Assembly: GCA_902624495.1 (NCBI GenBank)
Contig: CACNYH010000002.1
Coordinates: forward strand, 8,349 to 72,348
Reading direction: 5' to 3'
Origin: an uncultured Pelagibacteraceae bacterium
GTDB lineage: Bacteria > Pseudomonadota > Alphaproteobacteria > Pelagibacterales > Pelagibacteraceae
DNA: 64,000 bases
Part shown: positions 19,057 through 57,672 of the stretch, in pieces
How the letters are laid out: each line of letters begins with the position of its first letter
Numbering within the stretch: position 1 is the stretch's first letter
Position numbers and translations under genes: made by a program
Notes under the pieces: generated by a model
Seen by the model: the letters and a program-made list of their open reading frames with translations, nothing else
The model's database searches: none
Told to the model about the DNA's origin: nothing

Positions 19057-20349
19057 TTAAGCAGCTAAAGCTTGCTTGATATCCGCAACAATATCGTCTG
19101 GATGTTCAATACCAATCGATAATCTGACATAACCTGGTGTAACACCAGCAGCTAACATTTCTTTCTCTGTAAGCTGACTATGCGTTGTTGTTGCTGGGTG
19201 AATTGCTAAACTTCTAGCATCACCAATATTCGCTACGTGGTAAAGCATTTTTAAGTTGTCAATGAACTTAGCTCCTGCTTCTTTTGTTCCTAGATCCATA
19301 CCTATTAAAGATCCATAACCACCTTGCATATATTTTTTAGCTCTATCTCTAATTTCACCTTGATAATTAGTTGGATAGATAACCTTTTTAACTTTTTTGT
19401 GACCATCTAAGAAATTCACAACTTTCTCTGCATTGTTACAATGTTGTTTCATTCTTAAAGCTACAGTTTCCAAACCTTGAATGATTTGAAAAGCATTAAA
19501 TGGACTTAATGGAGCCCCTAAGTCTCTCAATAAAACTACTCTTGCTCTGATAACAAATGGAATATTAGCACCAGTTAATTGTGGAACTGCATCTGCCCAA
19601 ACTGCACCATGATAACTTTGATCTGGTTCATTTAATAGAGGCTGTCTTTTTCTATCTTTTATCCAATCAAAATTTCCTCCATCTACAATTATTCCTCCAA
19701 TTGAAGTGCCATGACCACCAATATATTTTGTCAAAGAGTGCATTACAATTGCAGCTCCATGAGCTAAAGGCTTACATATCACTGGTGAAGCTGTGTTATC
19801 GATAATTAAAGGAATACCTTTTTTTCTACCGATATCAGAAACTTCTTTAATTGGAAAAACACGAAGATATGGATTTGGAAGAGTCTCACCATAGTAAGCT
19901 CTTGTTTTATCATCAGTCACTTTTTCAAAGTTTTTAGGATCTGCAGGATCTGCAAATCTAACTTCAATACCTTGTTGCCTTAAAGTATTTTTGAATAAGT
20001 TAACTGTACCTCCGTATAAATCAGTTGAAGCAACAATGTTATCTCCAGCTTGTGCTAAGTTTTGAATACACATTGCTGAGGCTGCTTGGCCTGATCCCAC
20101 TGCACATGCTGCTACACCGCCCTCAAGCGCTGCAACTCTTTTTTCTAGCACATCTACAGTTGGATTCATTATACGTGTATAAATATTACCAAACTCTTTT
20201 AGACCAAATAAATTTGCAGCATGTTCTGCATTTTTAAATTGGTAAGAAGTTGTTTGGTAAATAGGAACTGCTACAGCTGTTGTAGTAGGATCAGCTCTAT
20301 AATCACTACCATGTAAGCCTATAGTTTCCGGATGTTTAAAATCAGACAT
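19057..20349 (-). CDS. metY: O-acetylhomoserine sulfhydrylase / aminocarboxypropyltransferase
   Basis: AVPIYQTTSY, YTRIMNPT, HSLTKYIGGHG (PLP lysine), ANIGDARSL, HPATTTHSQL. Confidence 0.96.
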   Translation of the reverse strand: MSDFKHPETIGLHGSDYRADPTTTAVAVPIYQTTSYQFKNAEHAANLFGLKEFGNIYTRIMNPTVDVLEKRVAALEGGVAACAVGSGQAASAMCIQNLAQAGDNIVASTDLYGGTVNLFKNTLRQQGIEVRFADPADPKNFEKVTDDKTRAYYGETLPNPYLRVFPIKEVSDIGRKKGIPLIIDNTASPVICKPLAHGAAIVMHSLTKYIGGHGTSIGGIIVDGGNFDWIKDRKRQPLLNEPDQSYHGAVWADAVPQLTGANIPFVIRARVVLLRDLGAPLSPFNAFQIIQGLETVALRMKQHCNNAEKVVNFLDGHKKVKKVIYPTNYQGEIRDRAKKYMQGGYGSLIGMDLGTKEAGAKFIDNLKMLYHVANIGDARSLAIHPATTTHSQLTEKEMLAAGVTPGYVRLSIGIEHPDDIVADIKQALAA

Positions 20350-20389
20350 TGATTTTCCCCCTTACTGTTTCTCTTATCGTTTCGTTCAT
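20342..20389 (-). CDS. Putative leader mini-ORF 2 (MNETIRETVRGKINV, 15 aa), overlaps metY start by 8 nt
   Basis: GGAG 5 nt before the ATG; ATG overlaps the uORF1 stop (ATGA); stop TGA lies within the first metY codons. Confidence 0.45.
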   Translation of the reverse strand: MNETIRETVRGKINV

Positions 20390-20439
20390 TTTTTCTCCGT
20401 CTTTCTGGAGAAGAATGAACGAAATTTAATTCTGTTCAT
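20386..20439 (-). CDS. Putative leader mini-ORF 1 (MNRIKFRSFFSRKTEKK, 17 aa) directly behind the SAM-V Shine-Dalgarno
   Basis: AAGGAG-AAG-ATG at the 3' end of the SAM-V aptamer; open for 17 codons to TGA. Confidence 0.5.
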   Translation of the reverse strand: MNRIKFRSFFSRKTEKK

Positions 20440-20442
20440 CTT

Positions 20443-20496
20443 CTCCTTTTTAGTACTTCGGCAAATGCCAGGTGTACAATATGGTTCAAATACCCG
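20443..20496 (-). ncRNA. SAM-V riboswitch aptamer
   Basis: Minus strand CGGGTATTTGAACCATATTGTACACCTGGCATTTGCCGAAGTACTAAAAAGGAG: P1 CGGGT/ACCTG, UUUGAAC..UAUUGUAC loop, small hairpin, AGUACUAAAAAGGAG pseudoknot tail; upstream of metY. Confidence 0.9.
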
Positions 20497-20516
20497 ATTT
20501 AATTTTAGATTATTCC

Positions 20517-20546
20517 AAAAAAAAACCACCGGCTAAAGCGGTGGCC
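20517..20546 (-). terminator. Intrinsic terminator of the SAM-II expression platform
   Basis: Minus strand GGCCACCG-CTTTAGC-CGGTGG followed by T9; CGCTTTAGC is complementary to the aptamer tail GCTAAAGCG. Confidence 0.88.
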
Positions 20547-20558
20547 AAAATGACTTTG

Positions 20559-20608
20559 CGCTTTAGCTGGATTTGTATAGCGCCCGCAAGTTGCCTTAAC
20601 TCAGCGCT
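20559..20608 (-). ncRNA. SAM-II riboswitch aptamer
   Basis: Minus strand AGCGCTGAGTTAAGGCAACTTGCGGGCGCTATACAAATCCAGCTAAAGCG fits the SAM-II pattern GCGCUGA.UUAA...UUGC..GCGC...AAAU..AGCUAAA. Confidence 0.85.
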
Positions 20609-20615
20609 TAACAAA

Positions 20616-20645
20616 AATATAGCAATTATTTAATATCCTTGTCAA
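20616..20645 (-). promoter_or_regulatory. Putative sigma70 promoter of the metY leader
   Basis: TTGACA-18 nt-TATATT with extended -10 TG; ends about 7 nt before SAM-II P1. Confidence 0.7.
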
Positions 20646-57480: not shown

Positions 57481-57527
57481 ATAATTTGCATTTGACTTTT
57501 TACAGTATTTAGAGGAGAGTCCTTTTC

Positions 57528-57672
57528 GTAACGGGAGAGACCATTTAGGCGCCGAAGGAGCAACCACCCCGGAAACTCTCAGGCAAAAGGACCGTTACCG
57601 TAATAACTCTGGAAAGCAGGCGAAAGCCTCACCGAAGGATTAAATCTCTCAGGTACATAGACAGATGGGGTT
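57528..57672 (+). ncRNA. Tandem glycine riboswitch
   Basis: Aptamer 1 GGGAGAG...CCGAAGGAGCAA...AAACTCTCAGGCAAAAGGAC with P1 GTAACGG/CCGTTAC; aptamer 2 CTCTGGAAAG...CACCGAAGG...TCTCTCAGGT...GACAGA; upstream of gcvT. Confidence 0.96.

Follow-up and report, generated by a model that had tools for sequence, protein, structure and literature searches.

Riboswitches of the SAM-V class are described as direct-acting: according to the published accounts, which include the tandem riboswitch of bhmT, they mask the ribosome-binding site (RBS) of their gene upon binding of S-adenosylmethionine (SAM; PMC9481103, PMC11508383). In the SAM-bound state, helix P2a pairs the first bases of the Shine-Dalgarno (SD) sequence (Huang and Lilley 2018, PMC6061858). 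A direct-acting example is metY of HTCC1062 (PMC2704228, PMC6061858); in leaders of this type, the start codon lies 3-8 nucleotides (nt) past the GGAG of the aptamer, and SAM masks this SD. Here, we analyze the leader of metY in a stretch of 64,000 nt from an uncultured Pelagibacteraceae bacterium (assembly GCA_902624495.1, contig CACNYH010000002.1, positions 8,349 to 72,348); this whole stretch is called the window. The leader shares with HTCC1062 metY the aptamer, the ligand class, the target gene and the 3' tail (AAAAAGGAG); however, metY starts 93 nt past the aptamer GGAG, and the tail would serve as a decoy that pairs with a masking strand. The canonical SAM-V arrangement, an aptamer SD directly 5' of the gene start and typically within ten nucleotides of it, is thus absent at metY, and the SAM-V SD is not the SD of this gene, as the original prediction had stated. 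SAM binding has been demonstrated for the metY and bhmT aptamers of HTCC1062; the aptamer in the window is a putative SAM binder.

The thiamine pyrophosphate (TPP) riboswitch of E. coli thiM has an expression platform which consists of an anti-anti-SD, an anti-SD and an SD strand. The window resembles this type in having three strands and two mutually exclusive helices; in both cases, the bound aptamer would withhold the first strand, and the second strand would mask the SD. It differs in that the first strand is a look-alike of an SD plus ATG, apparently inherited from the direct-acting aptamer, and in that the output is a small open reading frame (ORF), below called mini-ORF. The closest functional precedents are the SAM-II riboswitch of S. 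meliloti metA and the B12 riboswitch of M. tuberculosis ppe2. At metA, the AUG used for initiation lies 74 nt downstream of the SAM-II SD, requires this SD and is inactive alone (Scheuer et al. 2022, PMC9373788); a standby-site mechanism was proposed, and a terminator was found between the two AUGs (PMC9373788). This riboswitch belongs to the same structural clan and shares with the window an SD followed by an unused AUG1 and an SD-dependent remote start, whereas a masking strand or a coupling ORF is not described there. At ppe2, a translated upstream ORF (uORF) is needed for expression of the main gene, mainly by termination-reinitiation (Kipkorir 2024, PMC11260477). A short uORF under the putative control of a riboswitch is common to ppe2 and the window, but riboswitch class and organism differ; moreover, the coupling at ppe2 is experimental, whereas that in the window is deduced from conservation, and the main gene in the window has retained its own strong SD.

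The SAM-II/SAM-V tandem leader of HTCC1062 bhmT has the same order of parts as the window, namely promoter, SAM-II (in the window a SAM-II-like stretch), terminator and SAM-V (PMC9481103, PMC11508383). One of the bhmT loci that we retrieved (L008, G120) has the coordinates listed for HTCC1062 in Table 1 of Meyer 2009 (PMC2704228); thus, in the experimentally studied bhmT tandem riboswitch, the spacer measures 66 nt and follows the three-segment logic that is described below for the window. The two leaders differ in the regulated RBS, which belongs to the enzyme gene in HTCC1062 bhmT and to the mini-ORF in the window. The architecture as a whole had been considered new; this holds for the mini-ORF adaptor, but the logic of the switch is not unique to metY, as the bhmT leader has it, too. 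Neither the masking strand nor a remote RBS is mentioned in the published SAM-V accounts; the original paper of Poiata et al. (2009) may mention the spacer.

Our main finding is a conserved set of three segments, A, B and C, which follows the SAM-V aptamer and is linked to metY by a conserved mini-ORF. The features of the locus, in the order of transcription, are:

20616..20645, minus strand: promoter-like site, TTGACA, an 18-nt spacer and TG-TATATT, with 11/12 consensus matches and an extended -10 TG
20543..20617, minus strand: SAM-II-like aptamer, first member of the tandem (RF00521, 16.1 bits, E 0.31)
20515..20546, minus strand: intrinsic terminator between the two aptamers, a GC-rich stem of 8 bp with a T run behind it
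20440..20504, minus strand: SAM-V aptamer, full-length match (model positions 1-66) to RF01826 with 71.3 bits (gathering score 41) and E 1e-9
20434..20446, minus strand: segment A (GGAGAAGATGAAC), SD-like tail of the aptamer plus ATG, read as RBS decoy and anti-sequestor
20386..20439, minus strand: uORF1, 17 codons (MNRIKFRSFFSRKTEKK), not conserved and probably a by-product of the decoy
20407..20424, minus strand: segment B, putative anti-SD or sequestor strand, which pairs with A or C
20380..20398, minus strand: segment C, putative regulated RBS (GGAG, 5 nt, ATG) plus the first codons of the mini-ORF, assigned from its unpaired probability and from B:C conservation
20342..20389, minus strand: uORF2, the mini-ORF, 15 codons (MNETIRETVRGKINV), present in 51/51 distinct leaders
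20357..20363, minus strand: SD of metY, AAGGGGG (AAGGAGG in relatives), 7 nt 5' of the ATG and within the mini-ORF
19057..20349, minus strand: metY, O-acetylhomoserine sulfhydrylase, 430 aa (PF01053, 394 bits; TIGR01326, 575 bits, cut-off 495)

The coordinates of both uORFs, of the segments A, B and C and of the metY start had been predicted correctly to the base. The ATG of metY is at 20349, and the ORF has no earlier in-frame start. We propose, with moderate confidence, that the SAM state acts via a strand swap between A, B and C on the translation of the mini-ORF, and from there by termination-reinitiation on metY. According to this model, the leader is a tandem of SAM-II (with its terminator) and SAM-V, in which the SAM-V aptamer would not mask the ribosome site of the gene directly. 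Its 3' tail A (GGAG plus ATGAAC) would serve as a decoy that imitates C (GGAG, 5 nt, ATGAAC), the real site; A and C would compete for the single pyrimidine-rich masking strand B. If SAM is absent, the tail would be free, the local A:B hairpin would form first, C would stay open, and ribosomes would start the 15-codon mini-ORF. If SAM is bound, helix P2a of the aptamer pseudoknot would engage the first G residues of A, A:B would be disfavoured, and B would pair with C, burying the SD and the start codon of the mini-ORF. Ribosomes terminating 8 nt inside metY would pass the decision on, either by termination-reinitiation or by local unfolding, and metY output would thus depend on the translation of the mini-ORF.

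For comparison, the SAM-V covariance model was run on 151 genomes from the family and on 151 from the genus; 170 loci were then retrieved. The direct-type leader, with a metY start 3-8 nt past the aptamer GGAG, accounts for 68 loci and is found in the majority of SAR11 genomes. A spacer of 90-112 nt ahead of metY occurs at 60 loci (51-60 distinct sequences), all from the genus of the window, and a spacer of 56-137 nt precedes a bhmT-like (PF02574) or a MetE-like gene at 32 loci. The three-strand tests are based on 80 distinct long SAM-V leaders from SAR11 with metY, bhmT-like or MetE-like targets, and the integrity of uORF1 and the mini-ORF was counted in 51 distinct long metY leaders.

In 80/80 long leaders, one B strand pairs either with A (mean -20.0 kcal/mol) or with C (mean -18.2 kcal/mol), and the B bases involved overlap. 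When the middle segment was shuffled, a B matching both partners equally well arose in 0.15% of the trials on average; chance alone does not account for the arrangement. Cognate A:B pairings, compared across 13 leader types, are more stable than non-cognate ones (-19.1 vs -13.2 kcal/mol; 0/20,000 permutations, p<5e-5), and the same is true for B:C (-14.8 vs -12.3 kcal/mol; p=0.0007), which corresponds to cognate advantages of 5.9 and 2.5 kcal/mol, respectively; note that these p-values overstate independence, as the leader types and species compared share ancestry. Beyond the common GGAG/CUCC core, the helix extensions are compensatory by lineage (GAUGAAC/GUUCAU, AGAGAC/GUCUCU and GAGCUAAUU/AAUUAGCUUC). 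Among 60 distinct sequences of the window's clade, the A:B pairs are kept in 99.2% and the B:C pairs in 91.8% of the cells, and variation is concentrated in the loops. The two helices are mutually exclusive and share B, one of them covers an SD and a start codon, and both show co-variation, which is the pattern of a sequestor and an anti-sequestor. The predicted pairing of B with A or C, but not with both, is therefore conserved and co-varying, and, judged by these comparisons, the three-segment switch is real and general among long SAR11 SAM-V leaders. Because A must fit the same B strand as C, it resembles C in having an SD which is separated by a few bases from an ATG; this explains both the direct repeat of A and C and the ATG of uORF1.

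Two variants of the spacer were observed in other long leaders. A CCCTC or CCTCT motif is conserved in the A-B loop of most leaders that are not of the window type (L006, L017, L031, L036, L062, L070, L077, L171); this motif is anti-SD-like, could pair with the GAGG of A or C, and was lost in the window's clade. In bhmT leaders of genus g9 (L058, L062, L063, L064), the spacer is 136-137 nt long and an extra hairpin is inserted between A and B, with the A/B/C complementarity kept.

In the window, A:B comprises 13 pairs with one bulged base, and B:C comprises 11+6 pairs flanking a small internal loop. The B:C helix of 17 bp listed in the original prediction is thus present, but its outermost pair, 20424:20380, is confined to the window and a minority of its relatives. 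The duplex energies are -21.2 kcal/mol for A:B and -21.1 kcal/mol for B:C; as hairpins, with -18.2 (A:B) and -19.7 kcal/mol (B:C), the two are close in energy as well. When folded without constraints, the leader is bistable: the centroid contains B:C, the minimum free energy (MFE) structure contains A:B. Ligand binding was modeled by blocking the tail. The MFE of the whole leader is -28.8 kcal/mol with a free tail (A:B) and -28.3 kcal/mol with a blocked tail (B:C), and the predicted fold flips to B:C when just AAAAAGG of the tail is made unavailable, which fits the P2a pairing of the first SD bases in SAM-bound SAM-V. The unpaired probability of segment C is 0.39 with a blocked and 0.69 with a free tail; across the 51 leaders, the corresponding accessibility of the mini-ORF RBS is 0.38 vs 0.60. 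These states model the putative ligand-dependent choice between A:B and B:C. The predicted accessibility of the metY RBS, in contrast, is 0.46 with a blocked and 0.52 with a free tail and thus hardly depends on the state; consequently, this site would not be switched directly, and the structural effect cannot reach metY directly. A search for an OFF-state structure masking the metY SD revealed none that is convincing, merely a weak A-U hairpin around the AUG, which is not conserved in TAATG-type loci. A function of A:B as a terminator was rejected, because no U run is found 3' of the hairpin.

The start of the mini-ORF overlaps the stop of uORF1 as ATGA, and its end overlaps the metY start by 8 nt. 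It is intact in all 51 leaders, with a GGAG located 4-7 nt (mostly 5) 5' of the ATG; its frame is preserved through 3-nt indels, and no frame-changing indel was seen. Nonsense or start-loss alleles were absent among 43 substitution events, whereas about 10% of random changes would be disruptive. The stop codon always lies at the metY start, in the form ATGnnTGA or TAATG; each of the 51 leaders and 4 operon-type loci thus have a uORF which overlaps or abuts the main start, as in the ppe2 type. In those sister genomes whose long leader serves a bhmT-like or a MetE-like gene, metY lies 54-62 nt downstream of that gene, and the gap holds the same mini-ORF, whose own SD follows right past the upstream stop codon. 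In sum, the mini-ORF is found in three genomic contexts. For the two uORFs, ORF integrity and frame are more informative than counting synonymous versus non-synonymous changes. By this measure of conservation, uORF2 is a mini-ORF adaptor in front of metY, and it is the new element here. The SD of metY itself, AAGGGGG at 7 nt before the ATG, had been noticed in the original prediction as an SD-like GGGGG; it is conserved in relatives as AAGG(G/A)GG, 7-8 nt 5' of the ATG.

Two other explanations of the mini-ORF were considered and dropped. The motif MSTNR, which is common to L077 and the g8 BhmT, raised the idea of a remnant of the BhmT N-terminus; however, an intact mini-ORF also follows a bhmT-like gene that is itself complete. 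A programmed frameshift leading from the mini-ORF into metY was rejected, because there is no slippery heptamer.

The role of uORF1 has to be judged differently. The leader had been interpreted as a relay of two uORFs: at low SAM, ribosomes would load at the SAM-V SD, translate uORF1, melt B:C, reinitiate on uORF2 and finally on metY. The canonical 17-codon uORF1, whose stop forms an ATGA with the start of the mini-ORF, is found in 32/51 distinct leaders; in L162/L163, a similar ORF stops with ATGA at the main start, and in g1 and g8 bhmT leaders, one stops a few nt past the main ATG, all of which would suit a relay. In the other 19/51, however, uORF1 is disrupted or re-framed: three leaders have early stops at codon 3 or 5 (MN or MNRI followed by a stop), two more have other stops, two have lost the ATG (GTG or TTG instead), six are frameshifted such that the ORF extends 79 nt into metY, and six carry an in-frame fusion to the mini-ORF. 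Disruptive changes make up 3/33 events versus 13% expected, which is about the neutral rate. Homologous long leaders (L017, L070, L171) have A, B and C but lack any uORF1-like ORF, and the GGAG-ATG spacing, which amounts to only 3 nt in the clade of the window, lies between 0 and 11 nt in the other leader types. Finally, the conserved and co-varying A:B helix would bury the start of uORF1 in the ON state. Hence, of the predicted conservation of both uORFs only that of uORF2 was confirmed, and of the relay the step from uORF2 to metY, which is backed by conservation and the fixed termination at the metY start, has been retained; the opening of B:C by uORF1 translation and the reinitiation at ATGA have been given up. 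The complete relay is improbable in our view, and uORF1 is probably a by-product of the likeness of A to C, the real ribosome site, and not a required part.

It is unlikely, too, that A, B, C and the mini-ORF are a mere carry-over of leader capture or cassette loss, with metY using its own SD and the SAM-II terminator being the regulator. Such a history would be in line with the conserved metY SD and its almost state-independent accessibility, with the clear recombination of the leader (break points 20440 and 20383) and with a cassette presence that varies within the clade; it hardly explains why A:B and B:C pairs are kept to 99% and 92% over the 60 sequences while the loops vary freely, why the mini-ORF is free of frame-changing indels and nonsense changes whereas the neighbouring uORF1 region accumulates both, and why both stop-start geometries put termination at the metY ATG. 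A standby site, where the SD of A, or C, recruits 30S for the metY AUG and the uORFs stay untranslated, has a precedent in the S. meliloti metA SAM-II SD required for initiation 74 nt downstream (PMC9373788). We nevertheless consider it very unlikely for the window, since metY has a strong SD of its own and since a standby site would account neither for the lineage-specific complementarity of B to A nor for the constancy of frame and stop in the mini-ORF. There is equally little reason to expect that the product of the mini-ORF is a functional micropeptide or a nascent peptide for arrest or sensing rather than part of a coupling device alone: a T-x-R-E-T-x-R-like core is common to leader-fused and operon versions, but the peptides comprise only 12-16 residues, are rich in K/R/E/T and variable in length, and the version of L177 (MTKKTNRQTTRRKK) is loosely similar at best. 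Part of the conservation is accounted for by the embedded metY SD and the pairing with B. Moreover, neither uORF1 nor uORF2 contains internal Met or Cys codons able to sense the methionine supply, as amino-acid-sensing leader-peptide attenuation would demand.

Several points weigh against the proposed strand swap with coupling via the mini-ORF. Its main weakness is the good SD of metY: this SD is strong, well-spaced and, according to the predictions, about half accessible in both states, so that part of the translation may escape the switch and translational control may be partial. As P2a comprises only about 2 bp, SAM would shift the equilibrium modestly, and the switch may need co-transcriptional kinetics. 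A large part of the regulation may be due to the upstream SAM-II terminator. The accessibility of bhmT-type leaders changed little in the equilibrium model (0.51 vs 0.44); in these cases, the thermodynamic model alone fails to demonstrate switching. A test for synonymous excess gave p=0.048 for the mini-ORF and p=0.06 for uORF1, a weak result which does not separate the two, and two of three frames are open across the purine-rich stretch, which makes openness weak evidence. The shared ancestry of the leaders, mentioned above for the p-values, belongs to these points as well.

The genomic surroundings of metY have been rearranged. In a metY tree, all mini-ORF-bearing metY genes form one clade (support 0.998), within which cassette-bearing and cassette-free versions are interspersed. 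The slot between the leader and the module of mini-ORF and metY contains a bhmT-like gene, a MetE-like gene of 362 aa, or is empty (slot genes at L173:386-1500, L177:155-1297, L178:134-1254 and L179:175-1289). As the states of the slot are interspersed on the metY tree, it behaves like a site at which cassettes with genes for methionine synthesis are swapped. The RNA libraries of four seawater studies contain contigs that run from the aptamer through both uORFs to the metY start; these are assembled contigs, which are uninformative on ends, strand, levels and translation. Contigs from these libraries diverge from the window exactly at 20440 and 20383 and continue as the bhmT-operon variant. 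The loose ends thus mark recombination boundaries, and both versions of the leader co-occur in the same samples.

The notion that SAR11 has made a movable regulatory cassette of the direct-acting SAM-V aptamer, that the tail has been re-used as a decoy of the real ribosome site and that the mini-ORF is a universal docking point is tentative and, as a combination, more open to doubt than the mechanism proposed for the window. The same aptamer might then act on a distant site by way of a single masking strand, and whatever lies upstream, be it the leader, a bhmT-like or a MetE-like gene, might pass its translational state to metY. The distance between SD and start at S. meliloti metA may have a similar explanation; the SAR11 data suggest a testable alternative to the standby site proposed there and may show how riboswitches of the SAM-II type act on translation from a distance. 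The SD of the aptamer would not be the working one in a large part of the SAR11 leaders, the studied bhmT leader included; consequently, binding and structural data for isolated aptamers do not yet explain gene control. The model can be tested by mutations in A, B, C and the mini-ORF. It would be an example of a streamlined genome which re-wires one sensor to different methionine genes via cassette swaps around a small coupling ORF, and, as SAR11 are among the most abundant ocean bacteria, it bears on how a major flux of sulfur and methionine is controlled.

Some observations concern the upstream part of the leader and the rest of the window. The cover by RNA-library contigs stops at about 20617 and does not count as evidence for the promoter-like site. 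With 16.1 bits, the SAM-II-like stretch stays below the gathering score of RF00521, which is 36; it is, however, clearly homologous to the tandem leader of HTCC1062 bhmT (L008). Given this homology to a validated SAM-II riboswitch, the RF00521 model seems to under-detect the SAM-II aptamers of SAR11. The intrinsic terminator is kept in all long leaders and in the direct leaders of g1 and g2; in the latter direct-type metY leaders (L020, L034, L072 and others), a terminator of the form GGTGG-T-run also precedes SAM-V. Elsewhere in the window, a glycine riboswitch aptamer is found at 57522-57604 on the plus strand (RF00504, 64.1 bits), where it is matched as a single aptamer.

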